From: Candidatus Competibacteraceae bacterium
Lineage (GTDB): Bacteria > Pseudomonadota > Gammaproteobacteria > Competibacterales > Competibacteraceae
Direction of reading: 5' to 3'
NCBI GenBank assembly: GCA_046347625.1
Contig: JAXMFU010000001.1
Coordinates: forward strand, 671,512 to 735,511
DNA: 64,000 nucleotides
The first letter of the stretch is position 1. Every line of letters starts with the position of its first letter. Positions 21,163 to 63,431 of this stretch are shown here, piece by piece. The notes below the pieces were generated by a model. It searched no databases. It saw nothing but the letters and a program-made list of their open reading frames with translations, and was not told the origin of the DNA. The position numbers and the translations under genes are program-made.

Positions 21163-21180
21163 AACTACGGGTTCTCGTGA

Positions 21181-22566: not shown

Positions 22567-22580
22567 CCGGAGCGGTTCGC

Positions 22581-23287: not shown

Positions 23288-23356
23288 AGCCGGGTAAAGC
23301 GGGCACAGGAGGTGCCCGACATATACCGCCACAAATTGGGAAAGCATCGGGCAACA

Positions 23357-40925: not shown

Positions 40926-40957
40926 ATTAAAAACTCTTTAACCTTTAACCTTTAACC

Positions 40958-42869: not shown

Positions 42870-42875
42870 GGCGCT

Positions 42876-46348: not shown

Positions 46349-47329
46349 TCAGGTCCGTCGCTTCAGCCGTGTTGTGACGGCAATTACCGCGAAGGTGGCA
46401 CTGCTGTAAAGCAGGTAAAGGACATGCAGGCCGGCGGCGCCGAACATAAACCGTGGGCCTCCACAGCGCGCGAAAAAGCGATACAAGCCGGCGTTGAGTC
46501 CCGCGATCAGAGCGAGTGCCAGCAGCGCGCCGACAGCGGCCCAGGGTCGGAACAGGCCGACCACCAGGCAACTCAGCGCGATCCAGGCGGCCAGGGCGCT
46601 CAAGCGACTTTTGCTGTCCAGATTCAAGTCATTGGGCAAGGTCCGGTCGCGCATAATCAACTCCGTCCAGGGAATGGCCCGGTCCCGAATATCGGCGCGC
46701 AACAGTCCGGTAAACGTCCATTCCTTCAGATGGGTCGCCTGTACGTCGGGACATAGGCGAATCCGATAGCCCGCCCGGCGCAGGCGCACGCCCAGTTCGA
46801 TATCCTCGATGGAAGGACGGAGATAGCTTTCATCGAAGCCGCCGACGACCATGAAAGCCTCGCGGCGGATGGCGCCGCAACCGGTCCAGAAGGTGCCGGC
46901 TTCGCGGCGGGCGTGCTGGTGGACATAGTGATGCATCAGGTTCTTATAGCGGGCTGTCAGGCTGCGCCCGGGTGGCACGGTGTCATAGGAACCCATCAGC
47001 GCGGCGACCTCCGGTTCGGCACTCAGATAATGCTCCATGAGAGCGACGGTATCCGGGTGAACCACCACATCGGCATCGAAGAAAAGCAGAATATCCCCTT
47101 GGGCGGCGGCGGCGCCGTGATTACGTGCCACGGCCGGTCCATGGGGAGCGCCGGGCAGGGAAATGACCCTGGCGCCCAGATTGCGCGCCACCTCCGCCGA
47201 GGTATCGGTGGAGGCGTCGTCGACCACGATAATCTCGTCCGGTTGCCGTCGTCCCGAACGCAAGCCCTGCAGACAGCGGTGCAGGTGGTCGGGATCGTTG
47301 TGAACGGGAACAATAGCGGACAATAGCAT
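46349..47329 (-). CDS. Family 2 glycosyltransferase.
   Basis: SAIVPVHNDPDHLHRCL ... IIVVDDASTD (DXD motif). Confidence 0.8.
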   Translation of the reverse strand: MLLSAIVPVHNDPDHLHRCLQGLRSGRRQPDEIIVVDDASTDTSAEVARNLGARVISLPGAPHGPAVARNHGAAAAQGDILLFFDADVVVHPDTVALMEHYLSAEPEVAALMGSYDTVPPGRSLTARYKNLMHHYVHQHARREAGTFWTGCGAIRREAFMVVGGFDESYLRPSIEDIELGVRLRRAGYRIRLCPDVQATHLKEWTFTGLLRADIRDRAIPWTELIMRDRTLPNDLNLDSKSRLSALAAWIALSCLVVGLFRPWAAVGALLALALIAGLNAGLYRFFARCGGPRFMFGAAGLHVLYLLYSSATFAVIAVTTRLKRRT

Positions 47330-47554: not shown

Positions 47555-48412
47555 ATGAACAATATCAAGCTGTCACTGTTGCGCGGCATCTGCCAGATGC
47601 CGGCCTATGTGGCCTATGAGAAGGGGTTCCTGAAGGATGAAGGATTGGAAGCGACATTGGAAATTGTGGCTACGGCCTGGCTGGTGCCCGAGAAGCTGGC
47701 CAGCGGTGATTGTCAGTTTGCCGTAATGCCGTGGACGCGAGTTGCAGCGGCCGAACTGGAAGGACTGCCGTTGGTATTACTGGCCGGTTCGGGATATGAG
47801 GAGGCGGCGATTGTCCTGCGCAATGGGATTTCCCCGGCGGAGGTCAGTAAGGTGGCCATTCCGCTGCGCGGCGGCATCAAGGACCTGACGGCAATGGGCC
47901 TGATCAAGTCGCTTGGCTGGGAAAACGTCCAGCAGATTCGGCAGCCGTCCGGCGACGGCGCAATCATCGCGTTGTTCGGGCAGGGAGCGGATGCCGCCTC
48001 AATGGTGGAACCGTACGCGACGATGATGGAAGGGTTAGGCGTGGGCAAAGTGATCCGGCGCACGGGCGATTTGTGGAAGGGGGCGCCAGGATGTTCGTTG
48101 GCAACGACAAAACCGTTCAGAGATCGCACGCCCGATGTGGTGGAAGGTGTGGTGCGGGCGTTCGCGCGCGGGGTCCAGTTTGTGAAGGAGAACCCACAGG
48201 AGGCTGCGGAGATGGCGTCCCGTTACATCGGTGTCAACAGCCGGTTCATCTGCGCGGCGTTGAAGAACAACCAGCCCAACGTGGATGCTATCCGTAACTC
48301 TCGAGCGATGGCGGAAATTCTCGGGCTGATGCAGCAACTCGGATACATCCACACGCTCCCGACCGACTACGTGGATTTAAGTTTTCTCGACAAAGTCGGC
48401 GCCATTCAATGA
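47555..48412 (+). CDS. NMT1/THI5-like substrate-binding-fold protein (SsuA/TauA-like) with no obvious signal peptide.
   Basis: GYLKDEGLE ... LASGDCQFAVMPW pattern of the NMT1/ABC substrate-binding-protein fold. Confidence 0.55.
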   Translation: MNNIKLSLLRGICQMPAYVAYEKGFLKDEGLEATLEIVATAWLVPEKLASGDCQFAVMPWTRVAAAELEGLPLVLLAGSGYEEAAIVLRNGISPAEVSKVAIPLRGGIKDLTAMGLIKSLGWENVQQIRQPSGDGAIIALFGQGADAASMVEPYATMMEGLGVGKVIRRTGDLWKGAPGCSLATTKPFRDRTPDVVEGVVRAFARGVQFVKENPQEAAEMASRYIGVNSRFICAALKNNQPNVDAIRNSRAMAEILGLMQQLGYIHTLPTDYVDLSFLDKVGAIQ

Positions 48413-49941
48413 GGCTGGGACGGATCAGGCAACTGGTGCACTTGGCGGGCGGCTTCCGCCGGTTTCTGCAAACGCCGGTCAGCTACGATCAAGCTGTCGG
48501 CGATATTCGCCGGCGGCTGGAAAACCGTGACCGCGATTTCAGCGCACTCGCCCAGCGACTGATCTACGACATTCCGTCCAGCCCATACCGCAAGCTGCTG
48601 TTGTGGGCCGGCTGTGACTGGGCCGATCTGTGCGCGAACGTGAAAACGCACGGTCTGGAGAAGACACTGAAACAGCTTTGGGATGCCGGGGTGTACCTGA
48701 CGTTGGAGGAATTTAAGTCGGGTATTCCCATCAGTCGTCCTGGGTTGAACATCGAGACAGGCGAGAGCGACTTCGATAATCCGTTTCTGGGCAGTCACCG
48801 CCTCGAAGGCGCCACCAGCGGCAGCCGGGGGCGGAGCACGCGGGTAGCTTACGACTGGGAGTTCATCACCGAGGAGAGCGCGCACGAGCTGTTGTTATAC
48901 ACCATGCACGGTGTGCTGAACGCGCCGACCGCACTTTGGTTTCCCGTCCCGCCCGGCATCGCCGGCATCCATAACCTGCTGATGAACCTCAAAATGGGAA
49001 GCGTACCTGAAAAATGGTACTCACACACACCGACCGACGCCATGCTGTTGGAAGCGCGGCTGGCACTCCGGTTCATTCACTGGATGAGCAGTTCACCGCG
49101 CCCCGAATTCGTCGACCTCTCCCAGGTAGACCAGGTTGTTGCCTGGCTCGCCGGCGCCTGCGCGAAGCGCGGCATCGCTGTGGTACGGACGTACGGCAGT
49201 TCGGCCGTTCGCCTCGCTCAAACCGCATTGGCGTCCGGCGTTGACATCAGCGGCAGCATCCTGTTCGCCGGGGGTGAACCACTCACTGAACATCGCCGGT
49301 GCTTTATAGCGTCCACTGGCGCGAAGGTATTCCCGCGTTACATCACCACCGAAAGCGGTCTTGTCGGCGCCGCCTGCCCCCATCACAACGGGACCGACGA
49401 CATGCATTTATACAAGGATCGGCTTGCTGTGATCGAACGGGAGGAACGGTTGTTCTATACATCTTTGACCGCGCACGCCGGCAAGATCATGCTCAATACC
49501 GATTTGGGTGATTGCGGGGAACTCACCACCAAGCCTTGCAATTGCCTGTTCGGTGAGTTGGGATTTGACCAGCATCTGTCAAACGTGCGCAGTAACCAGA
49601 AACTGACGGTGGAAGGGATGACGCTGTTGGCTTCCGAGTTGTACCGCGCCATCAGTGTTGCCGTCGAGACCGCCGGGGGCGGGCCGGATTCGTACCAGAT
49701 CCGGCAGAAGCAGGATGAGAGTGGATTGAGCAAATTGGTGATCACCCTCAGCCCTGATGTCAGCGGCGTGGAGGAGGCGAAGCTGGTTGAAGCCGTACTC
49801 GCTCACCTCCAGCGGGGCCGGCCGGCCAGTGCGCTGGCGGCGGATGTCTGGCGGCAGGCGGCGACATTGCAGATCGTGCGCGAGCGGCCGCAGTTGAGCC
49901 GGGGGCACAAGCTGTTGCCGGCGATCGAGAAAGGAACGTAA
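48409..49941 (+). CDS. PaaK / F390-synthetase / CapK-like adenylate-forming enzyme (ANL superfamily).
   Basis: A P-loop-like ATSGSRGRST and ...YITTESGLVGAACPHHNGTDDMHLYKDRLAVIE. It is a paralog of the ORF at 53025-54566. Confidence 0.6.
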   Translation: MRLGRIRQLVHLAGGFRRFLQTPVSYDQAVGDIRRRLENRDRDFSALAQRLIYDIPSSPYRKLLLWAGCDWADLCANVKTHGLEKTLKQLWDAGVYLTLEEFKSGIPISRPGLNIETGESDFDNPFLGSHRLEGATSGSRGRSTRVAYDWEFITEESAHELLLYTMHGVLNAPTALWFPVPPGIAGIHNLLMNLKMGSVPEKWYSHTPTDAMLLEARLALRFIHWMSSSPRPEFVDLSQVDQVVAWLAGACAKRGIAVVRTYGSSAVRLAQTALASGVDISGSILFAGGEPLTEHRRCFIASTGAKVFPRYITTESGLVGAACPHHNGTDDMHLYKDRLAVIEREERLFYTSLTAHAGKIMLNTDLGDCGELTTKPCNCLFGELGFDQHLSNVRSNQKLTVEGMTLLASELYRAISVAVETAGGGPDSYQIRQKQDESGLSKLVITLSPDVSGVEEAKLVEAVLAHLQRGRPASALAADVWRQAATLQIVRERPQLSRGHKLLPAIEKGT

Positions 49942-50648
49942 TGGCGGTAACGTTTGATCCTGAATCGTGGAACCGTGTGTACGACAATCCGCACGATATC
50001 AAGGATTTCGTATTCCGGCGCGGCGCGGAACTGGCGCGTGACAGCTGTCGGGAACTCATCCGGTCCGGTCACCGCTGGTTGGACCTCGGGTGCGGAACCG
50101 GCCAGTTGATGCAGTGGCTGAGTGAAGCCGGCGCCTGCGTAGTGGGGGTTGATCATGACCTGCGGATGATCGAGTTCACCCGCCGGAAAGCGGGGGGAGA
50201 ACTGCGCGGGGTGGTCGCACAGGGCGAACGACTTCCCTTTGGCGATGCCACGCTGGATGGTGTGGTCGCCACCTCCGTGATGGGCTGCATCCCGGAGGCG
50301 AAGTGCATTTACGCCGAAATGTACCGCGTGTTGCGCCCGCACGGTTGTGCGGTACTGACCTTTACCAATCGGGCCAGTTGGTTGCTGAAACTCAACTACC
50401 TCGCCACCCGGCCCGGCGGCACGAAGTATTACCTTTATGATGCGGCTGGTGTGACCCGGGAATTGGAGGGACTCGGTTTCCAGGTCCTCCAAACGCGATT
50501 CTATAACTTCGTGCTCCGTGCAGGTGGTATGTTATTGCCGCCTCCGTCGCTGGCTCGGCGGCTCGATGGCCTGGGTCGGCACCTGTTCAGCAGACATTGG
50601 GCAAGAAACTTCATCGTCGTGGCGCAGAAACGCTCTGCGGTCAGGTGA
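49941..50648 (+). CDS. Class I SAM-dependent methyltransferase.
   Basis: Contains LDLGCGTGQL and RLPFGDATLDGVV (Methyltransf_11 motifs). Confidence 0.8.
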   Translation: MAVTFDPESWNRVYDNPHDIKDFVFRRGAELARDSCRELIRSGHRWLDLGCGTGQLMQWLSEAGACVVGVDHDLRMIEFTRRKAGGELRGVVAQGERLPFGDATLDGVVATSVMGCIPEAKCIYAEMYRVLRPHGCAVLTFTNRASWLLKLNYLATRPGGTKYYLYDAAGVTRELEGLGFQVLQTRFYNFVLRAGGMLLPPPSLARRLDGLGRHLFSRHWARNFIVVAQKRSAVR

Positions 50649-50796
50649 GTGGGAGCGTGCCTTCCCAGCCGCGCTCCAACAGTGGGCATCGAGCCTGGGA
50701 AGTGGCTTCGACTCGGCAGCGTTCGATTTGCAACATCGGCTTGTTCGCCTGCCGGACCGTATTATGCAAGGTAATGCCGGCGATCCCGCACAGGCG

Positions 50797-53028
50797 TCAA
50801 CCTCCCTTCGGGCGGACTGCCCGGACCGCTACGAAATAACCCGTCAACCAGCGCGTCGGCCAGCGTGCCAGCCGCTCCCACTGCATCAGTCCTTCCAGAA
50901 ATCGCTGCTGCCGCGCCGCGTCGCCACGCCGCTGCACTGCGGCGGCCCGTTTCACGGCCAACACCCGTGGACAGTGCAACAATGCGCCCATTCTTCCGAC
51001 CTCGAACCCGGTTTCATGCAACAGCCGCCGCAGTCGTCTCGGTCCGCAGGTGACACCCACCTGGTACGGCATCAGCCCGAGCCGGTGCAGTAGCGCAAAC
51101 GGCAGCAGGTTGCGGATGGCGACCAATGGATTCGCCGCATTGTCCAGGGTCAACAGCAGTTCTCCACCCGGTCGCAACACCCGCCGCAACTCCCGCAGGC
51201 TGCCGATCAATTCCTCCTCGGTCTGAAAATGATCCAACGTCGAGTTCGATACGATGACGTCGAATACGCCATCGGTGAACGGTAACTGACGGACATCCGC
51301 GCCGATGCCCGTTCGGGCGGCCTGCACGGTGGTCAATGCGATATCGATGCCGACCACGAACCGGGCGCGGGAGACGAGTTCCCCGTATAGACCTCCGCCC
51401 ACCGCTTCGTCGAACAGGTCCGTCTTCAACACCCGTTCCACCGGCCGTTGCGGCCACCATGACGCCAGCCATTGTCGGTTCACCGCGTCGCTGTGCGCGC
51501 GCCAGAGCTTATCGGGTTGCGCCTGTCGCCAGTCAGCACCGACCTTGTCCCAATAAAGGAGATCGTCCGATACCGACGGTTTCGTCCCCGTTACCAGCGA
51601 CCAGGCCAATGCAATCTCGCGCCGACTGAACTCGCCCAGTACCAGATATCCGACCAGTACCAACAGCGAGAGGGCTACCAGCTTCACCACCAGCATTATC
51701 CCGCTCGCCGGCCAGAGCGTCGCCAGCGCAAAGGTACCAGTACACAACAGTACGCTGCGCCCTAAAGAGGCCGCTGGCGGCGCCACGCGCCATAACCGCC
51801 GGACCGCTCCCACGGCCAATGCCGCGCCGCACACCGTCAGGCCGGTCGTCACTACCGCCGCTCCCATGGCGCCAAAGGGTGGAATCAGCAACAGATGCCC
51901 GACCAGTCCCAGTGGTACCAGTGGCCCGGCAATGATGAAGGTCCAGTTTGCCTTTCCTCCCGCCGTCAGGATGCCATTCGTCACCCCCAACAAAACTCCC
52001 GCCACCGCACCGAAAATCAATACCGCCAGCAGCGGTCCGGCCGCGGCGAACTGCACCCCGGCGATCAGCCGCACGATCTCACCGGCCGCCCCGGCGCTCA
52101 ATCCCGCCAACGGCAGCAGCAGTAACACTAACCGCATCGCATCGCGCGCCATGAGGTGGGCGTGTTGTTCCCGGCCATCGCGCAACAGCCGCGTCAGCGT
52201 CGACAGCAGCAGCGGCGAGAGTGACGCCGCAAAAATCCCAAACACCACCGTCAAGTTCTGCGCCATGCCATAGATACCGGCCTGTGCGGCAGTCGCACCG
52301 AGCGCTTTCAACATCAACAAATCCAACTTGTCGAACACGCGCAGCGCCATCGCACACAGAAACAACGGTACTACCGCCTCCCACAACCGCCGTACCGGAA
52401 AATCCGCCGGGCCGAACAGCGCAGGACGGATGAACCGGCGGGCGATGGCCAACTCGATTACCGACGTGCCGATGCTGGCGACAATCGCGCCATTGACGGA
52501 GAACCCTGCCAGCCCGACCAGCGCCAGGACCAACACCAGCCGCACCGTCCAGCGGACGGCACTCAGCCAGGCGCGTTGACGGAATCCGCCGGTGCCGATC
52601 AAGATATTGCGGTGGGCGTGCGCGAGGCTGAAGAGCGGAATATCGATAGCGAACAAGCGCAGATACCCGGCCAGGGTCGGTTCGTCCAACAGGGCGGCAA
52701 TCGGCCCGGCCAGCGCCACCAGCAGCACGGCGCACGCGACGCTGACGCCCAGGTGCAGCCGCACCACCAGCGTGCCCACGGGCCGCCAGTCCGACACTTC
52801 GGCGATACACTTATACGTGGCGCGCGCGAATATCGCCGTGATGGTCCATTCGATCCAGGTGACCAGCGTTATCGCCAGCGTGAACAAGCCGTACCCGTCT
52901 GCACCGAGCCGCCGTGTCAACACTACCGTCGCGATCAGACCGGCTGGCAGGATCAATGCTTCGGCGAGGAACACGCGGACCGTGCCGTCCAGAATACGGT
53001 GGCCTGCGGCTGAAGGTCTAGGCTTCAT
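50797..53028 (-). CDS. Fusion protein: an N-terminal Wzx-like polysaccharide flippase (MOP/PST family, about 480 aa, roughly 12-14 transmembrane helices) joined to a C-terminal class I SAM methyltransferase domain.
   Basis: Long hydrophobic N-terminal portion. The C-terminal VVGIDIALT ... LPFTDGVFDVIVSNSTLDH ... LRPGGELLLT are methyltransferase motifs. Confidence 0.7.
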   Translation of the reverse strand: MKPRPSAAGHRILDGTVRVFLAEALILPAGLIATVVLTRRLGADGYGLFTLAITLVTWIEWTITAIFARATYKCIAEVSDWRPVGTLVVRLHLGVSVACAVLLVALAGPIAALLDEPTLAGYLRLFAIDIPLFSLAHAHRNILIGTGGFRQRAWLSAVRWTVRLVLVLALVGLAGFSVNGAIVASIGTSVIELAIARRFIRPALFGPADFPVRRLWEAVVPLFLCAMALRVFDKLDLLMLKALGATAAQAGIYGMAQNLTVVFGIFAASLSPLLLSTLTRLLRDGREQHAHLMARDAMRLVLLLLPLAGLSAGAAGEIVRLIAGVQFAAAGPLLAVLIFGAVAGVLLGVTNGILTAGGKANWTFIIAGPLVPLGLVGHLLLIPPFGAMGAAVVTTGLTVCGAALAVGAVRRLWRVAPPAASLGRSVLLCTGTFALATLWPASGIMLVVKLVALSLLVLVGYLVLGEFSRREIALAWSLVTGTKPSVSDDLLYWDKVGADWRQAQPDKLWRAHSDAVNRQWLASWWPQRPVERVLKTDLFDEAVGGGLYGELVSRARFVVGIDIALTTVQAARTGIGADVRQLPFTDGVFDVIVSNSTLDHFQTEEELIGSLRELRRVLRPGGELLLTLDNAANPLVAIRNLLPFALLHRLGLMPYQVGVTCGPRRLRRLLHETGFEVGRMGALLHCPRVLAVKRAAAVQRRGDAARQQRFLEGLMQWERLARWPTRWLTGYFVAVRAVRPKGG

Positions 53029-54566
53029 CCTGGCGCCGGGATGATTGGAAGATGTTTGCCGCGCTTGGTCAGTTGCGGTTCGGCGCGAATGACTTCGAGC
53101 AACCCGCTCTGTTTCCAGATCTGTGCCGAGAACTTGCCAGAGCCGTGTGCACGGCTAAGCGTGTCGAGCACGGCGCGGATAAACTGCGCTTCGTCCAGGT
53201 TTTCGAGACGGGGATGAATCGCCACCTTGAGGCGGGTCAGTTCACCTTGACCGTCGGTTTCCCAGAACTGGTAATCGTCAGGGCTGCCCCCCAGTTGCTC
53301 GATGAGCGCACCGATGATCTCGTCGAGATCGGTGGCGAGGATCGCCATCCCTTCACCGGTCAGCTTGTCCCGGCTACGAACGTTGACGACGTGGGTTTCC
53401 ATGCCCAAATCACCAAACGCGCAACTGCACCGGCGCGTCACCAGCGCACCGGTATCGCCGATGTCGGTGTTGAAAAGAACCTTACCGGTGTGTGGCGACA
53501 ATGATGTGAACAGGAAGCTTTCCGCCCGCTGAATCACCGCCAAGCGGTCGACGTAGATGTGCATGTCGTCGGCGCCGGTCCGGTACGGGCAAGCCGCGCC
53601 GATCAAGCCGGCCTCCGTTGCCGAGTAGCGTGGAAATACCCGCGCGCCGGTCGCTTCGATGAAGCGGCACCGGCGTTCGGTCAATGGTTCTCCAGCGCTT
53701 AAGATCACGCTGCCGCTAATGTCGAGCCCACGTTCATGCGCAGCTTGGGCCAGGCGCACGGCGGAACTGACATAGGTTCTGAGCAGCGGTGGTCCGACTT
53801 TTCTTTTTGTCGTCGCAATCCATTCAGCAACCCGACCGGCGTGGCTGAAATCCGCAAATTCGGGCCGGGGAAGCGGCTGCCCCAGCAGCCGGCAGCAGCC
53901 AAGCAGGTACTCCATTGCCAGCCGGTGCCTTGACAGCAAACCGCCAGCCTTCCAGTCGGTCTGCGAAAACCATTGCAGCGGCACGCGCCGAAACCGGACA
54001 TTCATCATCGCGCTGCTAACGCCGGCAATCGCCGGCAGCGTCGGTAACCACAACACCAGCGGTGCCGTGCGGACGCCGTGCAGTTCATTGAGAATCAATT
54101 CGTTGGCCGCCTGCTCGTGGAACAACGCCCAGTCATATACCACCCGCGAACCGTGCGAGCGGCTACCACTGGTTGTCGCTTCGAGACCGGTGGCCGTGAA
54201 AAATGGGTTATCGAAATTATCCTCACGCGGTTGCAGCCACAGCCCGGAACGCTGGATGGGCGTGCGCGCCTTGAATTCGGCCAACGACACGTATACGCCG
54301 GCATCGCGCAACTGCGCCAGCGTTGGCTCCAGCCCGTGTCGGCGGACGTTTTGTGCCAAATCACCGTACTCGCACCCGGCCCACGCCAACAAGGCGCGAT
54401 ACGGACTCGAGGGGTTGCCGTAGATATGCGTCTGCGCCAGGCGTAGAAACCGGCCGGCTCGGTCGGCCAGCCGCAGTTTAAGCGCCGCGACGGCTTCGGC
54501 ATAATTCAGCGGCCGGCGGATGAAGGCCGGCAATCCCCATGCCAGGCGCGCCAGTTGCCCAATCAC
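53025..54566 (-). CDS. Second PaaK/CapK-like adenylate-forming enzyme. The start was re-set to a GTG that overlaps the upstream stop (GTGA).
   Basis: Aligns along its whole length with the 48409-49941 protein (SSPYR.LL.WAGC, ATSGSRS.GSRV.YDW, FPRY..TE.GL.GAACP). The 589-aa ORF as listed would overlap the ALDH gene by 230 nt. Confidence 0.6.
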   Translation of the reverse strand: MIGQLARLAWGLPAFIRRPLNYAEAVAALKLRLADRAGRFLRLAQTHIYGNPSSPYRALLAWAGCEYGDLAQNVRRHGLEPTLAQLRDAGVYVSLAEFKARTPIQRSGLWLQPREDNFDNPFFTATGLEATTSGSRSHGSRVVYDWALFHEQAANELILNELHGVRTAPLVLWLPTLPAIAGVSSAMMNVRFRRVPLQWFSQTDWKAGGLLSRHRLAMEYLLGCCRLLGQPLPRPEFADFSHAGRVAEWIATTKRKVGPPLLRTYVSSAVRLAQAAHERGLDISGSVILSAGEPLTERRCRFIEATGARVFPRYSATEAGLIGAACPYRTGADDMHIYVDRLAVIQRAESFLFTSLSPHTGKVLFNTDIGDTGALVTRRCSCAFGDLGMETHVVNVRSRDKLTGEGMAILATDLDEIIGALIEQLGGSPDDYQFWETDGQGELTRLKVAIHPRLENLDEAQFIRAVLDTLSRAHGSGKFSAQIWKQSGLLEVIRAEPQLTKRGKHLPIIPAPG

Positions 54567-56374
54567 TGGTAAATCGCCTGAATGCGGGTGTACACCGCGC
54601 GATTGCTGCGGCCATGTTCGGGAGGGCCGATGCCGGACGCTTTCCAGCCACCGAACGGCGCTTCCGCATCCGCATCGGCGGTGGCGCGATCGAGCTTCAG
54701 GATACCGGCCTGGGCCGTTTCGAGAAATCGCGCCTGCCGCTCCGCCGACCGGCTGAACAGTGCCGCCACCAGACCGTGGCGCACCCCGTTGCACAAGCGC
54801 AAGGCGTCCTCGAAGTCGCGCGCCGGTTGCACGACCAGCACGGGGCCAAACGTTTCTTCCTGTACGATCTCGGCGGCCGGATTGTCACATTGAATGACCG
54901 TCGGCGGAAAATACCCCGGCATCGGGTCCGCCGGGCCTTGCAAGAGCAGTCCACCGGTACGCGCCACCAAGGCGGCCACTTGATCGCGTTTGGCCGTCGA
55001 GATCAATGTGCCGACATCGGTCCGCGGATCCAGCGTGGCCACCGCCCGGTGCAGATGTTCGAGAAACGCATCCCGGCAGGCCGTGTCGAGGATTACCCGC
55101 CGGTTCGCCGTGCAGCGCTGCCCGGCAAAACCGAACGCCGCTTCGGCCACCGCCGTGGCGGCGGCCGCCAAGTCCGTATCCGACCAGACGATGGCGGCGT
55201 TATTGCCGCCCAGTTCGGCCTGCAACGGTACGCGGCGTTGCGCACAGATCACCTGTGCCGTCCAACCGGCCGCCTCCGAGCCGGTCAAGACCACGGCGTC
55301 GACGGCAGGGTCGGCCATCAACCGTTCGGCAACCGTAGCGTCGCCGTTCACCAGGTTCACCACGTCCGGCGGTATACCGGCTGTTTCGAGCAAAGCCATC
55401 AGCCGGACGGCAATACCCGCCGCGGCTGGAGCCGGTTTCCAGACCACCGTGTTGCCATAGAGCAGCGCCGGTGCGAGCCGGCCGACGGGGATGGCGACCG
55501 GGTTATTCCACGGCGTGATGACGGCGATCACCCCGCGCGGACACCGGCGCTCGCGGGAGTGCTCGCCGCACGGTGCTTCCCACGGCTCGCGCGCATACCG
55601 AATCGCGGCGTCGATGAGTGCCACGCTGCGTTCGAGTTCGGCATTACCGTACCGGAGCGGTTTATGAATCTCCGCCACCATCTGTCTGGCTAAGGCCGGC
55701 GACTCCGCCTCGATCAGCGCCGCCAGCCGGATGAGCATCTCGGCGCGATCGTTCAGCGACAGCTTGCACCAGGCGTACCCGGCATGTCGTGCCTTGGCTG
55801 TAGCGCATGCCACGTCCACCCGTTCATCGGCAATGGCGCCGCCGGGTAATCGATCCGCCGGGACAAACTGGACCGCGCGGGCTTCCAGGTACCGGTGCGT
55901 CACGGCGGCATGCAACGGGTCTTCACTGCCGACGGCATCGGCGACAATCCAGACTGTCCACCCACGTTGATAGGCGTCGAGCGCGGTGGCGCGTATGCAG
56001 CTTTGAAGTTGCACGCCCGCCAGCCAGAGGGTGTCGATTCCGCCAGCGCGCAGCACCGTGTCCAATGAGCCATCGACGAACGCACTGAAGCCGGTTTTGT
56101 GCAGCACGGTTTCGGACGGCCAGGGCGGCAACGGCGAGGCATGTCCGGCCGTGCCGTCGACACATATCCATTTACCGTCGCGTTGCCAGTGCGGCATCCG
56201 GTCGTCCGGCTCACGGTGTACCGTGGTCCGGACATGAATGACCGGGATGGCCGCCGCGCGGCAGCGCTCGAGCAGTTTTGCCACCCGGGCGATCAATTCA
56301 CCCGTCGTCGGTTGGAGTGCGGGTGAGTCCAGGTAATCCTGCTGCAGATCGACGAGCACCAGCGCTGGTTTCAT
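54563..56374 (-). CDS. Fusion of an N-terminal isochorismatase-like cysteine hydrolase domain with a C-terminal aldehyde dehydrogenase domain.
   Basis: N-terminal ALVLVDLQQDY and ...CIRATALDAYQRGW. C-terminal ELGGNNAAIV and the catalytic FAGQRCTANRR. Confidence 0.75.
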   Translation of the reverse strand: MKPALVLVDLQQDYLDSPALQPTTGELIARVAKLLERCRAAAIPVIHVRTTVHREPDDRMPHWQRDGKWICVDGTAGHASPLPPWPSETVLHKTGFSAFVDGSLDTVLRAGGIDTLWLAGVQLQSCIRATALDAYQRGWTVWIVADAVGSEDPLHAAVTHRYLEARAVQFVPADRLPGGAIADERVDVACATAKARHAGYAWCKLSLNDRAEMLIRLAALIEAESPALARQMVAEIHKPLRYGNAELERSVALIDAAIRYAREPWEAPCGEHSRERRCPRGVIAVITPWNNPVAIPVGRLAPALLYGNTVVWKPAPAAAGIAVRLMALLETAGIPPDVVNLVNGDATVAERLMADPAVDAVVLTGSEAAGWTAQVICAQRRVPLQAELGGNNAAIVWSDTDLAAAATAVAEAAFGFAGQRCTANRRVILDTACRDAFLEHLHRAVATLDPRTDVGTLISTAKRDQVAALVARTGGLLLQGPADPMPGYFPPTVIQCDNPAAEIVQEETFGPVLVVQPARDFEDALRLCNGVRHGLVAALFSRSAERQARFLETAQAGILKLDRATADADAEAPFGGWKASGIGPPEHGRSNRAVYTRIQAIYQ

Positions 56375-57516
56375 GCAGGGTTCGATTCCCGGTAAAGCGC
56401 GAACACGATGTCCGCGACCAACTCACCCATTTCACGGGTTCCGACCAGGCGTCCACCCAACTCCATCAAATCAGCCGTCCGCCAGCCTTGACGCCAGACT
56501 TGGTGCACGGCCCGTTCGATCGCATCGGCGGCATCGCTGAGACCGAAGCTTTCACGCAGCAACATCGCCACGGAAAGGATCTGGCCGGCCGGGTTTGCCA
56601 CATTCTTGCCGGCCAGGTCGTAGGCGGCGCCATGGTTGGTTTGATACGCCGCCGCGGCGCCGGGGGCAAAGTTGCCGGAGTAGGCCAATGCCCGCGACCC
56701 GAGTAATACCGCGCTTAGGTCGGCCAGCACATCGCCGAAAAGATTCGGCGCCACGATGACATCGAAGTCCCGGGCATGCTGAATCACACAATACGCGGCA
56801 TAATCGACGTTCAGCAACTGTAACTCGATACCCGCCGCGGCGGTAATTTCCAGCGCGCAGTCACGCCATAATTCGCTGATGGTCGGGATGCCGGCGTCTT
56901 TGTAGATGACCGTTAACCGGCCCCGGCGCCGACGGGCGATGCCGGCGGCGGCTTCGAGGATACGCCGCACGTCGGTTTCGGCGTAGGAAAAGTTGTGATT
57001 GGCCACGCGCGTTCCATCGGCTCGAGTGGTTTCGCTCCATTGGCCTTGGTAAATCCCACCGGCATTGTCGCGGATGATGATCAAATCCACGTTATCGCAG
57101 TATTCCGGTTTGAGCCGCGCCGTCAGGCGCAGTGCCGGGTCGGTTCGGACCGGGACAATTTTACAAAACAGATCGAACCGCCGGCGGAGGTCGTAGACGA
57201 AGCGGCCGCCGCCGGCGCCGTGCAACAGGGCGCCCCCATCGGCAAACACGTGACGGCAAAAATTCTCCACTTCAGCCGTCAGAGCGGCACCATGGGCCTG
57301 CTCGGCGGCGGTACCGATCAAGCCGCCGCGGCGAATAATAAAGCTGTATGGGCTGATGGTCTCCAGCGCCTGCAACACGGTGAGACCGGCACCGACGACT
57401 TCCGAGCCGACGCCTTCGCCGTCGAGCACGCCCACCAGATAGTGGCCATTGGAAGGCGACGGTTGGCGCTGACGACCGGGGATACAATCACTCCAGGTTT
57501 TGGCTTCAGGGTACAT
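56371..57516 (-). CDS. Isocitrate/isopropylmalate-dehydrogenase-family beta-decarboxylating dehydrogenase.
   Basis: NLFGDVLADLSAVLLGS is the signature of the IDH/IMDH family. Confidence 0.7.
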   Translation of the reverse strand: MYPEAKTWSDCIPGRQRQPSPSNGHYLVGVLDGEGVGSEVVGAGLTVLQALETISPYSFIIRRGGLIGTAAEQAHGAALTAEVENFCRHVFADGGALLHGAGGGRFVYDLRRRFDLFCKIVPVRTDPALRLTARLKPEYCDNVDLIIIRDNAGGIYQGQWSETTRADGTRVANHNFSYAETDVRRILEAAAGIARRRRGRLTVIYKDAGIPTISELWRDCALEITAAAGIELQLLNVDYAAYCVIQHARDFDVIVAPNLFGDVLADLSAVLLGSRALAYSGNFAPGAAAAYQTNHGAAYDLAGKNVANPAGQILSVAMLLRESFGLSDAADAIERAVHQVWRQGWRTADLMELGGRLVGTREMGELVADIVFALYRESNPA

Positions 57517-57562: not shown

Positions 57563-59125
57563 CTATGCCTGGTGCGGATAGACGCCGGTCCATTGGGCCA
57601 ACTTCACTTCAAGGGGAAACTGGTGGAAACGTTTTTTCACCCGCAGGTAGGCAAGCGGATAATAAATCGAGGCAAGCAGACGAACGAGCCAATGAGTTTT
57701 CTTGTACGGCGTGACGAAGTTATTACGGATGGCCAGCGCCGAGGTGAAATGCAACATCCGAATGAGACTTTTCTGGTCGGCCGATAACCAGGGCGCGTAA
57801 CGATTGACGGTGCTGAAGTTGAAACTCACCCATTCTTCCAGCGCGGCGGGGACTTTCAATCCGTGCTGCACGGCGAGATCGAAATCGGCCATACCAGGGA
57901 ACGGGGTGAAGACGTTAAGGCGGGGGACCGCCGCCGGGTTGTCGGCGGCGAGTTGGAGGAAGAGATCGACGGTCTGGGCCAGTTCCTCCTGGGTCTCGGT
58001 GGGAATGCCCATCATGAAGAAATAATGCGGTCGGATATCGAAGCGGGCGAGGCGCCGATTGAAGCGTACGATGGCCGGGATGTCCTGCGGTTTGTTCAAT
58101 AACCCCAGGATGCGCGGGGACGCGGATTCGATCCCGATCATTAACCGCGTACAGCCGCCGTCGCGCAGGATTTGCAGTTCGGCGTCGGACAAGGCAGTCA
58201 GCACGGCGCTGTGGCCGTCGACTTTGGCACAATCGATGCCGAGGTTGAGTTCCTTGAGTTGCCGGAAAATGGCGAGAGCGCGTTCTTTCTTCCCGAAGAA
58301 GTTGTCGTCGGTGAAGATAAAATGCCGAATGCCGTACTCGTTGACGATGCGCTGGAGCCGCCGCACGGTCTCTTCGACGGAGAGCGCGCGCCAGGTGCTA
58401 TGGTAGGCGGCGGTGTTGTAACAGTACTGACAGTGGAACGGGCAACCCCGACTGGTTTCCAGGCTCAGGTGCGGTATGCCGGAAATCAACGGCATATAGT
58501 TGCGGATATCCACCAGATGATAGGCCGGAAACGGTTGTACGTTCAGGTCGATCAATGGCCTCGGCCCGGTCGAACGTGGAGTTCCGTCCGGTTTGTACCA
58601 GACTCCGCGTACCCCGCCCAGCGGCGCGCCGGTCTCCAGGGCCTGCACCAGTTCGAAGAATGTTTCCTCGCCTTCACCTTGTACCACAAGGTCGATGTGC
58701 TCATGGCGCAGCGTCTGTTCCGGCATCAAGGTGGGATGGATACCGCCCCAGACTACCGGTACGGAACTGTGTTGTTTCACCAGGCGGGAGGCTTCCAGCG
58801 CCGAGCGAATCTGCGGTCCGGTCATGGAGGTGACGCCAACACAAACCGGCTCGCGGCGCAGCTCCTCCAGGAGCAACTCGCGCCAGCGGCTTTCCAGCCG
58901 CTGATCGATAATGCGCACGTCGTAACCCGCCCGGTCCAACGGAGTTCCAATCGCCAGCAGACCTTGCGGCAACTCGACACGCGGCTGGACCGCACCGCCA
59001 AATCGATGGGCCGGCTGGAATAATACGATTCGTCGTGAAGTACGTTGATTCATGGTCGTCGGATTCATCGCCAATGCAGCGGTATCGCCCAGGCACGTGT
59101 GGAGCTGGTATACATAGTCACCCAC
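57563..59125 (-). CDS. B12-binding radical SAM protein. The true start is probably the internal Met near 59068.
   Basis: An N-terminal B12-binding region, then the CPFHCQYC radical-SAM cysteine triad. Confidence 0.8.
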   Translation of the reverse strand: MGDYVYQLHTCLGDTAALAMNPTTMNQRTSRRIVLFQPAHRFGGAVQPRVELPQGLLAIGTPLDRAGYDVRIIDQRLESRWRELLLEELRREPVCVGVTSMTGPQIRSALEASRLVKQHSSVPVVWGGIHPTLMPEQTLRHEHIDLVVQGEGEETFFELVQALETGAPLGGVRGVWYKPDGTPRSTGPRPLIDLNVQPFPAYHLVDIRNYMPLISGIPHLSLETSRGCPFHCQYCYNTAAYHSTWRALSVEETVRRLQRIVNEYGIRHFIFTDDNFFGKKERALAIFRQLKELNLGIDCAKVDGHSAVLTALSDAELQILRDGGCTRLMIGIESASPRILGLLNKPQDIPAIVRFNRRLARFDIRPHYFFMMGIPTETQEELAQTVDLFLQLAADNPAAVPRLNVFTPFPGMADFDLAVQHGLKVPAALEEWVSFNFSTVNRYAPWLSADQKSLIRMLHFTSALAIRNNFVTPYKKTHWLVRLLASIYYPLAYLRVKKRFHQFPLEVKLAQWTGVYPHQA

Positions 59126-59271: not shown

Positions 59272-60507
59272 TTACCTGCGGTGAGCGGCTGAAGTCGCCC
59301 TGATTTTCTCGATTAGCGTGAGGTAATGTTGCAGATGGACTTCCGCCGTCCATTTCGCCTGATAAGCCCGGTATGCAGCGTAACCCAGATCATCCCGGAG
59401 CGCCTTGTTCTCCAGCAATCGCTCCATCGCAGTCAGCAGTTCCGACTCGTTCGTATAGCTGAAACCACCGCCGCTCTCTGCGATCAGCTCCGGCATCGCC
59501 CCTAAATTTCTGACAATCACCGGCGTTCCTTGTTGAAAGGCTTCCAGAATTACCAGCGGGCAAACTTCGAACCATAGGGAGGGCACGATCAGTGCCATCG
59601 CCTGCTGATAGCAGGCTTGCAACCGGCCGGCCGATAGATGACCCAGAAAGCGGATGTTAGTGCTGCCGTCGGCCAACCGCCGTAAGAAGGGTTCGTAATC
59701 ACCGGTACCGGCAATCAGCAGGCGCGCCCGCGAATAATTCCGGAAAAGAGGAATAAGCGTTTGCACTCCTTTGATTTTTTCCAAACGCCCTACATAGAGA
59801 AAATAGGGCACTTCCATGCTATCCCCCACCCATTCCGTTCCTGGTACTGCCGGTTCTTCGGAAATGAAATTGGGCAGATGTACGCCTGGCAGCTCGAGTC
59901 CTCTTTGCCGCAGAGTCTGTGCGCTGAAAAGGCTGGGTGCAATCAGGGTATCCACATGCGCCAGCATTCTCTCTAAAAGTCTGCCATAGCGCCACCATTG
60001 CGGCGGGCGCTTATGGACCAGTGTGCAGGGCAGACAAGTGGGATGCGCGCAGACCGCTCGGTTGAATTTGAACAGCACATGGGCAGGGCAGACCAGCCAG
60101 TAATCATGCGTTGTCAGGAGCTTGATACCCTGGCCATAGGCCAGTATCCCTGGACCACCGACTAAAGAAATGTTGTGATAATGGATGACGTCGAAACCTT
60201 TTTGCAGGATCGACTGGATACGGGCCCGCTTGAAAAAGGGGAGTCCGGTCTGTTGCGTGGCCAGAGGAGACAGTGGACCGAAGCGGCTCCTGAGTCCATG
60301 GATTGTTACATTGGGGTGGTCGTCATAGGTACCTGCCGGCTCCCGTCCCGCCAGCAGTAAATAGGAATCGATACAGTGGATTACCTCCACCTGATGCCCG
60401 CGCCGCGCCAGTTCGTTGCTCAGGCGGCGCACGAAAATCCCGTCTCCACCGAAGTTATAGGGAGGATAGAAGGTAGTAATCATGCAGAAGCGCAGTGACG
60501 TTCTCAT
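59272..60507 (-). CDS. Family 4 glycosyltransferase.
   Basis: The N-terminus MITTFYPPYNFGG and the C-terminal EVCPLVILEAFQQGTPVI form the GT4 fold. Confidence 0.8.
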   Translation of the reverse strand: MRTSLRFCMITTFYPPYNFGGDGIFVRRLSNELARRGHQVEVIHCIDSYLLLAGREPAGTYDDHPNVTIHGLRSRFGPLSPLATQQTGLPFFKRARIQSILQKGFDVIHYHNISLVGGPGILAYGQGIKLLTTHDYWLVCPAHVLFKFNRAVCAHPTCLPCTLVHKRPPQWWRYGRLLERMLAHVDTLIAPSLFSAQTLRQRGLELPGVHLPNFISEEPAVPGTEWVGDSMEVPYFLYVGRLEKIKGVQTLIPLFRNYSRARLLIAGTGDYEPFLRRLADGSTNIRFLGHLSAGRLQACYQQAMALIVPSLWFEVCPLVILEAFQQGTPVIVRNLGAMPELIAESGGGFSYTNESELLTAMERLLENKALRDDLGYAAYRAYQAKWTAEVHLQHYLTLIEKIRATSAAHRR

Positions 60508-61115: not shown

Positions 61116-62012
61116 ATGGATATGATCCTGAATTTTGCGCCGACCGGCATGATTCCAACCAAACAGATGACGCCTTATGCAGCTGTCGGCATTCAGGAAA
61201 TTATCGAAGATGTGCATGCCGCCTATGAACTGGGCATCACCCTCGTCCACCTCCATGCCCGGGACGAGGTGACCGAAGAGCCAACGTATAGGGCCGACGT
61301 GTACGCGAAGCTCATCGAGGGTATCCGCGAATTTTCCAAGGATCTCATCGTCTGCGTTTCCCTCAGTGGGCGCACCTTTCAGGAATTCGAAAAACGAGCC
61401 GCGCCGCTTCAACTTGATGGCGATCTCAAGCCGGACATGGGAAGCCTGACGCTCAGTTCGGTCAATTTTCCCCAGGTAGCCAGTGTGAATTCCCCGCAAA
61501 TGATTCAAGCCCTGGCCACCGAGATGCAACGACGCGGCATTCTGGCGGAATTGGAGGTCTTCGACGTGGGCATGATCAATTATGCAAAGTATCTGGAAAG
61601 CAAGGGCTTATTGCAACCGCCGCATTATTTCAATCTGCTGCTGGGCAGTATCGCCGGTGCCCAGGCCGATCTACTGCCTGCCGGCCTCATGATTCGCGAT
61701 CTACCACCGGGTTCCCTGTGGAGTTTTGCCGGCATCGGTGACGATCAACTGACAATGAACGCACTGGCCGTCGCCGCCAGCGGCGGCGTGCGCGTCGGCC
61801 TCGAGGACAATATCTGGTATGACCGCGGCCGCACTCGGCTGGCGCGCAATATCGACCTGGTGCGTCGTATCCACCAGTTGGCGGAGGTCTTGGAACGACG
61901 GATCATGCCACCCCAGGAACTCAGGCGATGCTTGCAACTCGAGGCAGGCAACGGTCGTTATGGCCGCCGCAGCGCCATGGCAGCGAATGCGAAGGCGCCG
62001 GCGATCGCTTGA
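61116..62012 (+). CDS. BKACE-family (DUF849) beta-keto-acid cleavage enzyme; 3-keto-5-aminohexanoate-cleavage-enzyme-like.
   Basis: N-terminus MILNFAPTGMIPTK, TIM-barrel length, and a GLEDN motif. Confidence 0.75.
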   Translation: MDMILNFAPTGMIPTKQMTPYAAVGIQEIIEDVHAAYELGITLVHLHARDEVTEEPTYRADVYAKLIEGIREFSKDLIVCVSLSGRTFQEFEKRAAPLQLDGDLKPDMGSLTLSSVNFPQVASVNSPQMIQALATEMQRRGILAELEVFDVGMINYAKYLESKGLLQPPHYFNLLLGSIAGAQADLLPAGLMIRDLPPGSLWSFAGIGDDQLTMNALAVAASGGVRVGLEDNIWYDRGRTRLARNIDLVRRIHQLAEVLERRIMPPQELRRCLQLEAGNGRYGRRSAMAANAKAPAIA

Positions 62013-62066: not shown

Positions 62067-63431
62067 CTAGCGATTCTCCGCCACCAATCGGCGCAATAAA
62101 CTGTTATAAGCCTGCCCCATTCGATCCGGTGAGAATTCGTTCCGGACCAGCCGTTGGGCGTTCTGCGCAAGTTGTGTTTGCAAGGAGACGTCGGTCAACA
62201 GAGTCACAACGGCTGACGCTAGAGACCGGCGATCGCCCGGTCGATAACACAGACAGGTTTTGTGATCCTGTACCAGTCTGGCGTCGGGATGTGCCGCAGA
62301 GGCAACAACCGGCAGGCCGGCGGCGAAAGCTTCCATGAGAACCAGCGCTACCGGGTCGGTGAAAGGCGAGTAGAAGAACAATAGATCGTGCTCGGCGTAA
62401 GCGGTTTGGAGTGCCGCCCGCTCTACCGGCGGACGCAAGGTTACGATATCGTTCAGGCCGTTACGCCGGATAGTCGCAAGGATGTTGTCGCGATAACCCG
62501 CCGGGCCTTGGGCAGCGATCACCGTCAAAGTGAGTTCTCCGACCGCCTGACGAATCGTGGGAAGCGCATCCAACAGTAAGTGGAGCCCTTTTTCCCGCGA
62601 CAGCCGTCCGACCCATAACAGGCGATTGCGCCCGCTGGCAAGACGGGGCAATGGTTTGGGCAAAGGGACGCTAAAGTAGATAATGTGCGCTCTTTCCTTG
62701 GCTAAGCCGGCCTGGATGGCTTCTTCATACCACTGCCGATTGGCAAACACGGCCAGCTTGATAGCGTGCGGCGAGACCCGCTGCAAGAGAAAAGGATGGA
62801 ACGAGCGGCGCAGACGTCGCCGCACCAGCACCTGCAACCCTGACCACCACCAGGCCCGGAGTTCCATGGCTAAGGCATTGAGACCGATGAGCATCACCCG
62901 TGGATGTCGCCGGGTAGCCAGCGCCATGAGGCCCGGCGCATCGATGGTCGTGGTGCTTAGCAGAACGGCATCATGGCGTTTGCTGTCGGCCAGCAGCTGT
63001 TCCATGCGGTAGAGGTTATCCGAAGCATGCTTCCAGAACGAACCCGGCATAAACAGAGTTTCGACAAGATAGCGAATCTGCACAGGCAACCTTTGCCCCA
63101 GCCACGCAGCCCATGTCCAGCGGCTCAGTACCGCCAGCTTGTTGGAAAAATTGGTTGGCTGCAACGCCAAGACTGAATCCGGTTTTTCTCCCACCGTGGC
63201 AGTCGAGTATACGGGGACATCGACTTCCCATCCCCGGCTCCTCAGTTGGGCGGCCAGATCATCCAGCGCGATCGTCAAGCCTCCTTTTTCTCCCGGGGAA
63301 AGCGCTTGCCCGATGAGCAAGGCTCGCAACGGTCTTCTTGCCGAGACAGCCGGATCGAGACCGGTCATCGTGCCGGTTCCGTTATCCCTGTCAGGGCTAT
63401 CGATGATCGGAGGCGTAGCAGGGCTGGTCAT
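62067..63431 (-). CDS. Family 4 glycosyltransferase, 454 aa.
   Basis: C-terminal LMEAFAAGLPVVASA ... motif of the GT4 fold. Confidence 0.75.
   Translation of the reverse strand: MTSPATPPIIDSPDRDNGTGTMTGLDPAVSARRPLRALLIGQALSPGEKGGLTIALDDLAAQLRSRGWEVDVPVYSTATVGEKPDSVLALQPTNFSNKLAVLSRWTWAAWLGQRLPVQIRYLVETLFMPGSFWKHASDNLYRMEQLLADSKRHDAVLLSTTTIDAPGLMALATRRHPRVMLIGLNALAMELRAWWWSGLQVLVRRRLRRSFHPFLLQRVSPHAIKLAVFANRQWYEEAIQAGLAKERAHIIYFSVPLPKPLPRLASGRNRLLWVGRLSREKGLHLLLDALPTIRQAVGELTLTVIAAQGPAGYRDNILATIRRNGLNDIVTLRPPVERAALQTAYAEHDLLFFYSPFTDPVALVLMEAFAAGLPVVASAAHPDARLVQDHKTCLCYRPGDRRSLASAVVTLLTDVSLQTQLAQNAQRLVRNEFSPDRMGQAYNSLLRRLVAENR

Follow-up and report, generated by a model that had tools for sequence, protein, structure and literature searches.

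A gene at positions 50797..53028 on the minus strand of a 64,000-nucleotide stretch of Candidatus Competibacteraceae bacterium DNA (assembly GCA_046347625.1, contig JAXMFU010000001.1, positions 671,512 to 735,511; hereafter the window) was found to encode a 743-amino-acid (aa) protein in which a MOP/PST-type flippase is followed by a class I S-adenosylmethionine (SAM)-dependent methyltransferase (MT). The gene, stop codon included, was delimited from the list of open reading frames (ORFs), the two types of Pfam domain that it encodes, an identical NCBI protein and 10 fused homologues. Taken as a whole, the data are best explained if the product is a bifunctional inner-membrane protein whose MT probably methylates a lipid-linked glycan at the cytoplasmic face just before the glycan is flipped. 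A fusion of a MOP flippase with a methyltransferase was not described in the literature searched. Both domain families are well known, and the fusion is an uncharacterized variant of known parts rather than a new kind of machine.

Organization of the fusion gene

The ORF starts with ATG and contains no internal stop in the ORF listing. Pfam matched residues 14-268 to Polysacc_synt (PF01943; 40.6 bits against a cut-off of 28.2), residues 36-329 to Polysacc_synt_3 (PF13440; 36.9 bits, cut-off 23) and residues 543-625 to Methyltransf_11 (E 4.6e-13; 50.1 bits, cut-off 21.2), with four related MT models overlapping the last match. The flippase domain spans residues 1-465 (51634..53028, minus strand) and has about 14 transmembrane (TM) helices and a cytoplasmic N-terminus. 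The MT domain spans residues 487-743 (50797..51570, minus strand); it was recognized by the Methyltransf_11 match, Rossmann-type strands and structural neighbors, and is predicted to be cytoplasmic. Between the two lies a junction of residues 466-486 (51571..51633, minus strand), which consists of a native flippase cytoplasmic tail, GEFSRREIALAWSLVTGTKP, with a helix at 469-479, and about 5-8 linker residues. The G+C content at third codon positions (GC3) was evenly high, 0.72-0.90, over the entire ORF including the domain junction. The initial annotation, made from the letters alone, had described a single 743-aa ORF that joins a transporter of about 480 aa to a soluble class I MT domain. This description proved accurate and was confirmed by the ORF list, Pfam, the recurrence of the fusion and an AlphaFold2 model with about 14 helices followed by an alpha/beta domain.

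The identical NCBI protein is named [quoted passage not shown] and lies on a 1.6-Mb contig; the automatic JGI name of the fusion protein already reads as flippase plus methylase. The ATG of the fusion gene overlaps the stop of the upstream gene (GGATGA), which suggests translational coupling of the fusion gene.

Recurrence and origin of the fusion

Homologues were searched for in 5.8 billion protein clusters. Ten more full-length fused proteins (724-768 aa, 64-80% identity) were recovered from NCBI, JGI, ENA and Logan assemblies, and the resulting 11 fused proteins (64-100% identity), all from independent assemblies, share the reading frame and a conserved junction, GEFSRREI-LAWSLVPG-KP...YWE-VG. 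HMMER was also run exhaustively against 1.84 billion 50%-identity representatives, and the best 150 matches considered included six that are fused end to end (P0002, P0241, P0259, P0262, P0265 and P0302). All except P0002 are divergent, at 36-42% identity, with both domains confirmed by Pfam. Stop-to-stop frame checks identified single fused ORFs in metagenome-assembled genomes (MAGs) of Verrucomicrobiota (L007 and L008) and Acidobacteriota (L011 and L047) and in three metagenome contigs (L092, L093 and L098), and four fused ORFs were present in the best 80 of 383 MT-matching genome stretches. From the homologues recovered, the flippase-MT architecture is rare yet recurrent across phyla.

That two genes were falsely joined through a sequencing frameshift, as an artifact of assembly or annotation, is extremely improbable. 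The source is a MAG, and a related protein, P0359, does resemble a frameshifted copy whose C-terminus is unrecognizable past the junction. However, independent samples and assemblers yielded the fused frame in the 11 close proteins and in five divergent clusters, the amino acids of the junction are conserved, and GC3 is uniform across it. Because the fused frame recurs across independent assemblies, a frameshift artifact is excluded for practical purposes, and an artifactual fusion was rejected. The initial annotation had proposed a database search for the same architecture, which found it in 11 close homologues and five divergent 50%-identity clusters, and had allowed for a frameshift or for two separate genes, a doubt that the shared frame, the conserved junction and the uniform GC3 did not support. 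P0359 itself (745 aa) is 61% identical to the fused P0262 up to residue 496 and then continues into an Arg/Gly-rich C-terminus without a domain match. This C-terminus is probably a frameshifted or decaying MT region, and the alternative that it constitutes a new domain was rejected in favor of a frameshifted MT.

The nearest relatives that consist of the flippase alone (P0012-P0017; 484-503 aa, with 72-78% identity across the transporter) terminate in ...GEFSRREIALAWSLVPGRK and a stop codon. Unfused flippases read ...SLVPGRK before the stop, and free MTs of the same family start ...(K/R)YWEQVG..., and the fused protein corresponds to the end of an unfused flippase joined to the start of a free MT with about 5-8 extra residues. 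Flippase and MT genes are adjacent on the same strand as separate ORFs in L014 (Gemmatimonadales) and L084 (Acidobacteriota), an arrangement that presumably represents the precursor state. The fusion thus probably arose through loss of the stop codon between neighboring flippase and MT genes inside a variable glycan-biosynthesis cluster.

Neighbor-joining trees of each domain, which carry no support values, placed the fused proteins in at least two lineages. The first is a young clade (P0001-P0011) in which two unfused flippases (P0012 and P0015), two free MTs (P0121 and P0124) and an MT fused to a glycosyltransferase family 2 (GT2) protein (P0245) are nested among fused forms. The second is a deep lineage made up of P0241, P0259, P0262, P0265 and P0302, four of which have a different MT N-terminal segment without WRAHSDAVN. 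These trees point to at least two fusion origins, with fissions or re-fusions, a count that is provisional because of the absence of support values.

The flippase domain and its predicted topology

AlphaFold2, run on an alignment of 124 sequences, produced a model of the fusion protein with a mean predicted local distance difference test score (pLDDT) of 92.9 and a predicted TM-score (pTM) of 0.76. The helices fit 14 TM segments, the last of which ends at residue 463; next come a short helix (469-479) and the alpha/beta domain. The pLDDT was mostly above 90 in the flippase and dropped to 55 in the block 481-490, which lies between the flippase and the MT domain. Lys and Arg are abundant at the N-terminus and in alternate loops of the flippase half. 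WzxE, a 12-helix protein, has both termini in the cytoplasm (PMC11706664). Because the N-terminus would be inside and the helix count is even, the C-terminal MT would be located in the cytoplasm, where SAM is available. The predicted topology is thus N-in, C-in, with a cytoplasmic MT directly off TM14 on a tether of about 20 residues. The initial annotation had asked for a topology prediction to place the MT domain and had made its reading depend on a transporter fold. The helix count, the Lys/Arg pattern and the termini of WzxE place the MT in the cytoplasm, and the features of a PST-type flippase (12-14 helices, two six-helix lobes and cytoplasmic termini) were all found, as judged from the AlphaFold2 model, the positive-inside rule and homology to WzxE.

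Foldseek returned WzxE as the best match of the transporter (E 3.4e-10, TM-score 0.80, 21% identity), and in the structural comparison MurJ gave the longest alignment (436-457 residues), including TM13-14; the domain is structurally similar to solved MOP transporters. At the sequence level, the flippase half had no match among PDB chains up to E 10, and NCBIfam offered no flippase-family name for the transporter. Like WzxE and classical Wzx proteins (PDB 9G9P and related), the fusion flippase is of the Polysacc_synt family type and lies in a glycosyltransferase-rich cluster. WzxE differs in having 12 helices rather than 14 and no fused enzyme domain. TM13 and TM14 (residues 419-463; helices at 419-438 and 444-463 in the AlphaFold2 model; 51640..51774, minus strand) constitute the extra pair relative to 12-TM Wzx, with the MT directly after them, and the domain therefore does not correspond to a classical 12-helix Wzx. 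The 14-TM MOP architecture is shared with MurJ and TacF, and also with RFT1, but sequence identity to MurJ and TacF is only 12-18%, and neither has been described with a C-terminal enzyme domain. The label "Wzx-like" in the initial annotation therefore holds for the Polysacc_synt family and for the best fold match; it does not hold for the helix number, which is that of MurJ and TacF, and the neighboring genes examined included neither Wzy, Wzz nor an initiating transferase.

A cytoplasmic C-terminal domain on a MOP flippase has a precedent in mycobacterial MviN (Rv3910), a MurJ-type flippase with a C-terminal pseudokinase domain that is bound by FhaA; the domain of MviN is regulatory, whereas that of the fusion is of a tailoring enzyme. 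In TacF and MurJ, the undecaprenyl tail is docked in a groove of TM13-14 that lies next to the TM1/TM8 lateral entrance (PMC13385700), and by analogy the MT active site of the fusion could lie near this entrance. Solved MOP flippases bind the diphosphate through cationic residues at the lateral entrance or central cavity, for example the TM1/TM8 arginines of TacF and MurJ. In the family of the fusion flippase, five arginines (R39, R69, R163, R280 and R424) do not vary, and R18 and R280 lie, by position, at the cytoplasmic ends of TM1 and TM8, respectively.

Flippases normally stand alone, as the initial annotation put it, and this is true of most members of the family. The family is also found fused to GT2 domains (P0081, P0095 and P0250), a glycosyltransferase family 4 (GT4) domain (P0067, Coleofasciculus), a GFO/IDH/MocA oxidoreductase (P0252) and an N-terminal type I phosphodiesterase-like domain (P0062), and the statement does not extend to these proteins. 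On domain assignments, the MT fusion is thus one of several cases in which the family is joined to a cytoplasmic enzyme of the pathway.

The methyltransferase domain and its family

The Rossmann-type strands of a class I MT were located at residues 530-535, 555-562, 589-595, 618-629, 676-683 and 732-738 of the AlphaFold2 model. The structural neighbors of the domain are class I MTs, and the top Foldseek MT neighbors are the sugar O-methyltransferases RebM and AtmM. SAM-binding motif I is present in a variant form, LKTDLFDEAVGGG, at residues 534-546 (51391..51429, minus strand). HMMER aligned FDEAVGGG (D540-E-A-V-G-G-G546) with LDLACGVG of PH0226 (1ve3), both following D-x-A-x-G-x-G, in which the first glycine of the motif is replaced by alanine. 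A degenerate SAM site, as the string "VLKTDLFDEAVGGG" with its resemblance to a lost GxGxG might indicate, was rejected by this alignment and by conservation in the family.

Conservation was examined in 11 fused and 54 free proteins. Identical in all 65 MTs were K535-T536-D537, F539, E541, G546, D562, S594, S596-T597-L598-D599-H600-F601, T627 and D629-N630, and near-invariant were D540, which is present in 52 of the 54 free MTs, and D578. The fused MT thus contains both motif I and the acidic residue after beta-2 (D562). It also contains the family-invariant motif SNSTLDHF at the end of beta-4 (residues 594-601; 51226..51249, minus strand), a candidate acceptor or catalytic site. Since the family-invariant positions are the same in fused and free MTs, a decayed, purely structural MT is unlikely, and the fused MT is probably catalytically active. 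RebM, AtmM and the generic Methyltransf_11 enzymes TM1389 and PH0226 are its nearest class I relatives, from which the family differs in the context of motif I (LKTDxFDEAxGxG), the invariant WRAHSDAVN and SNSTLDHF motifs, and helical additions at both the N- and C-terminus.

A word-indexed search with the MT returned 2,294 matches, which are typically about 262 aa in length and mostly free-standing. A genome scan gave 383 matching stretches from many phyla; the best 80 of the 383 were kept as loci, and Nitrospirales were prominent among them. In L003, a free MT of 245 aa shares 78% identity with the fused MT domain along its entire length, and the genes are ordered flippase (484 aa), sulfotransferase, free MT and GT2, with the GT2 gene overlapping the MT gene by 4 bp. 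In L006 (12716-14326; P0245), the MT (77% identity over 257 residues) follows the C-terminus of a GT2 in one fused protein, and the flippase is unfused. MT, GT2 and flippase genes co-occur in yet other orders in L012 and L013. The MT module is shuffled among pathway partners and occurs free, GT2-fused and flippase-fused; overall, the free copy of L003 and the GT2-fused copy of L006 showed 75-82% identity to the flippase-fused domain.

Relation between methylation and flipping

We propose that the MT would methylate a lipid-linked glycan at the inner leaflet, most simply on a hydroxyl group of the sugar added last. The site of action would be beside the groove in which TM13-14 would dock the polyprenyl tail, and the MOP domain would then flip the finished unit to the periplasmic side. 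With methylation preceding flipping, the fusion would co-localize a late tailoring step with export. The initial annotation suggested that the exported unit is methylated at the membrane, and this is still the best reading: the predicted cytoplasmic topology, the short tether and the MT-GT2 fusion elsewhere point in the same direction, and we infer the activity from them.

Several observations weigh against this proposal. A flippase homologue was present within 10 kb of the MT in only 10 of 79 MT-anchored genome loci, and the MT was present in only 12 of 80 flippase-anchored metagenome loci. The MT mostly lives without a flippase, so its substrate need not be the cargo of the flippase, and the idea that the MT is an obligate partner of the flippase was rejected on these counts. 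The lipid-linked nature of the cargo is an assumption: the genes examined, which lie at 34.6-44.2 and 46-64 kb of the window, in about 2 kb beyond it, where the cluster continues, and within 10 kb on either side in L001-L006, included neither an initiating phosphoglycosyl transferase nor Wzy nor a chain-length regulator (Wzz/Wzc). Of these loci, L004 carries an unannotated 550-aa polytopic membrane protein. The label "Wzx/Wzy pathway" is not earned, because none of these three functions was found among the genes examined. Both neighbor-joining trees, furthermore, are without support values.

The main competing explanation, considerably less probable and still a serious one, is a fusion without functional coupling. 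A neutral loss of the stop codon would have joined the two proteins, the tether would give neither channeling nor specificity, and the substrate of the MT would be a soluble intermediate, for instance a nucleotide sugar or a small-molecule substituent that the PaaK-like, radical SAM and dehydrogenase enzymes encoded nearby produce. The occurrence of the MT without a flippase in most loci fits this explanation, as does the junction, which is a bare concatenation with no evolved linker, and so does the interleaving of fused and unfused forms in the closest clade, as expected if fusion and fission are nearly neutral. On the other hand, the fusion has been kept among proteins of 64-100% identity and also in a second lineage, at 36-42%, and the MT was independently joined to a GT2, another membrane-proximal pathway enzyme. 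The flippase family, moreover, is repeatedly joined to cytoplasmic glycan-building enzymes, which suggests an advantage of co-localization.

Methylation is coupled to exporter recognition in some pathways that use ABC transporters. In Escherichia coli O8/O9a, a terminal methylation by WbdD provides a cap that is read by the carbohydrate-binding module of Wzt, the two being separate proteins. WsaE of Geobacillus stearothermophilus is a 2-O-methyltransferase fused to rhamnosyltransferases that caps a lipid-linked glycan in the cytoplasm before export (PMC2943079). It resembles the fusion in that a SAM-dependent MT is joined to glycan-assembly machinery, and by architecture it parallels the GT2-MT fusion of L006. 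It differs in that the MT is joined to two rhamnosyltransferase domains rather than to an exporter, that the Wzm/Wzt ABC transporter performs the export, and that the methyl group is a chain-terminating cap. The exporter of the fusion is a MOP protein, and no ABC transporter or carbohydrate-binding module was found in the window cluster; the resemblance to WbdD/Wzt and WsaE/Wzt is functional at most.

It is quite unlikely that the MT domain licenses or gates export, either because methylation is a completion mark read by the flippase or because the MT occludes the cytoplasmic entrance until it has acted, with only methylated units being exported. TacF shows that MOP flippases can monitor the decoration of their substrate, with phosphocholine (PMC13385700), methyl caps license export by the ABC transporter in WsaE/Wzt, and the very short tether would hold the MT on TM14 next to the presumed lipid-tail groove. 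However, flippases that are 72-78% identical have no fused MT, and in some of their clusters no such MT lies close by. A comparison of fused and unfused flippases, which was not analyzed in depth, gave no residues that set the two forms apart systematically, and nothing in the sequence separates gating from plain co-localization. The suggestion of the initial annotation that the MT may gate export thus gained no support: the catalytic-type motifs are all kept, and the fusion resembles a simple loss of a stop codon. A combined, hard-wired form of the idea, in which tethered methylation must come last among the cytoplasmic steps and entry into the MOP cavity via the TM13-14 groove is licensed by the methyl group or by release of the substrate from the MT, all inside a widespread uncharacterized glycoconjugate cluster with PaaK-like ligases and radical SAM enzymes that Competibacteraceae have in common with Nitrospirota, Acidobacteriota and Verrucomicrobiota, is unlikely as well, if slightly less so. 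If true, it would be the first completion-coupled export in a MOP-flippase pathway.

Methylation before flipping, the reading that we prefer, bears on two open questions in envelope biogenesis, namely which features of a lipid-linked glycan are checked by MOP flippases and where late decorations are added. A natural flippase-MT fusion provides a Rosetta-stone argument for methylation at the cytoplasmic face at the exporter, and the argument is stronger because the same MT also occurs free and fused to GT2. The fusion is also a compact and tractable construct for the study of decoration-coupled export, with one gene, clear SAM-site positions and natural split versions. Glycan loci often fuse neighboring genes, so the fusion itself would not be very surprising to a specialist.

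Gene neighborhood in the window

The fusion gene is the last of a minus-strand operon with 4-bp gene overlaps, which in order of transcription encodes a B12-binding radical SAM enzyme (57563..59125), an isocitrate/isopropylmalate dehydrogenase-family enzyme (56371..57516), an isochorismatase-aldehyde dehydrogenase protein (54563..56374), a divergent PaaK-like adenylate-forming enzyme (53025..54566) and the flippase-MT. The first three were assigned by Pfam, and the B12-radical SAM enzyme is 41% identical to that of the related cluster L001. The third is a second fusion in the operon, in which an N-terminal isochorismatase domain precedes a full aldehyde dehydrogenase (603 aa). The PaaK-like gene has a likely GTG start at 54566 that overlaps the aldehyde dehydrogenase stop, and its own stop overlaps the fusion ATG (ATGA); its product has no Pfam match and a weak match to BagE/FevW. 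A scan for promoters and terminators gave nothing above shuffled expectation.

Upstream of the operon, two GT4 glycosyltransferase genes (59272..60507 and 62067..63431, minus strand) flank a gene for a beta-keto acid cleavage enzyme (BKACE; 61116..62012, plus strand), which is also found in related clusters (L042 and L077). Just past window position 64000, on the same strand as the GT4 genes, are genes for a hexapeptide acetyltransferase and a sulfotransferase (L087 393-2060).

A plus-strand trio (47555-50648) is convergent with the fusion gene and encodes an NMT1/THI5-like protein with a binding-protein fold (47555..48412), which overlaps the start of the next gene, a 510-aa PaaK-like adenylate-forming paralogue without a Pfam match (48409..49941; weak match to phenylacetate-CoA ligase), and a second, stand-alone class I MT of 235 aa from a different subfamily (49941..50648). 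This MT is about 31% identical to the fused MT and 52% identical to its L001 orthologue, and the trio is conserved in L001, L005, L008, L013 and L107. By eye, the N-terminus of the NMT1/THI5-like protein is unlike a signal peptide. The two PaaK-like paralogues of about 510 aa show weak similarity to PDB 9s3l (E 7.7e-4) and BagE/FevW and have homologues in the related clusters; these proteins probably form a branch of adenylate-forming enzymes that is divergent and undescribed. A membrane-anchored GT2 glycosyltransferase with C-terminal hydrophobic segments at residues 241-319 (46349..47329, minus strand) was identified by Pfam and hydropathy.

This gene content also bears on whether the transporter could be MATE-like and export a small methylated metabolite that the adenylate-forming, radical SAM and dehydrogenase enzymes produce. 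Two observations would fit such an exporter: many of the enzymes of the cluster are small-molecule enzymes, and neither Wzy nor an initiating transferase was present among the genes examined. We nevertheless regard it as highly improbable. Pfam assigned Polysacc_synt and Polysacc_synt_3 rather than MatE, the best Foldseek match is WzxE (21% identity), and MurJ aligns over 436-457 residues including TM13-14. Glycosyltransferases are the most constant neighbors and fusion partners of the flippase, and the window cluster contains a GT2 and two GT4s, with the sulfotransferase and acetyltransferase just past the window end.

The G+C content is 0.63-0.66 at window positions 50000-56000 and about 0.50-0.61 elsewhere in the window, and the Verrucomicrobiota MAGs L007 and L008 encode the nearest homologues of the fusion protein, at 80% identity. 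These two observations suggest horizontal transfer of the cluster, or mis-binning.

Related clusters in other genomes

The commonest neighbor of the MT was a GT2 of the 326-aa type found in the window, which was present in 38 of 80 loci. Other neighbors were a PRK07208-type FAD oxidoreductase (32/80), an AsnB-like amidotransferase (27/80), a MurF-like ligase (19/80) and two small two-helix membrane proteins (18/80 each). In Nitrospira, the gene order is GT2, flavoprotein, two small proteins, MT, unannotated genes (one of which is weakly AMP-binding-like) and AsnB. By reading of the flippase-anchored loci, roughly 35 of 80 have a GT2 gene that begins within about 50-200 bp on the downstream side of the flippase gene, and P0081, P0095 and P0250 carry this pair as a fusion.

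These genes belong to a widespread set that was seen in L001, L005, L006, L008, L032 and many others from Nitrospirota, Acidobacteriota, Verrucomicrobiota, Planctomycetota and Proteobacteria. One part of the set consists of GT2, the PRK07208-type FAD oxidoreductase, two small two-helix membrane proteins and then the MT; a second comprises a flippase-GT2 pair and an AsnB-like plus MurF-like ligase pair; and a third comprises Glu-dehydrogenase-like, PALP, homocitrate-synthase-like and B12-radical SAM enzymes. When the FAD oxidoreductase, the small membrane proteins, HMGL, PALP, ELFV, AsnB and the Mur ligase were sought in the window, only the B12-radical SAM enzyme was found. An assignment of the small membrane proteins and the flavoprotein to a carotenoid cyclase/desaturase set was unsupported, as NCBIfam gave only a weak "holin_4" match and the PRK07208 "hypothetical protein" model.

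A sulfotransferase gene also lies between the flippase and MT genes in L003 and near both in L012 and L102. From these gene contents, the cluster product may be a sulfated, acetylated and methylated glycan. L004 encodes, directly after a GT2, the 550-aa polytopic protein mentioned above (16268-17920), with about 8-10 hydrophobic segments and no Pfam match, which is a candidate polymerase or ligase of a kind not seen in the part of the cluster inside the window. The widespread cluster is apparently uncharacterized, and it is, together with its product, a more intriguing lead than the fusion. Competibacteraceae are abundant in wastewater sludge, where extracellular polymers matter, and the related cluster is common in Nitrospira and soil phyla, so the identity of the product would have ecological reach.

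Other features of the window

The remainder of the window contains housekeeping genes, including those for ATP synthase, GlmU and AroB. The region 20000-24000, after a GlmU-like gene, has a low G+C content (0.50-0.52) and contains an HNH endonuclease ORF (20446-21093, plus strand); it may be a small mobile insertion. The AT skew is unusually high (0.26) at 40000-42000, over the region of an MFS_3 transporter gene. Three further ORFs have no Pfam match, namely those at 42783-43463 (plus strand, 226 aa), 43480-44190 (plus strand, 236 aa) and 29441-31186 (minus strand, 581 aa), the last of which encodes a single hydrophobic segment near residue 440.

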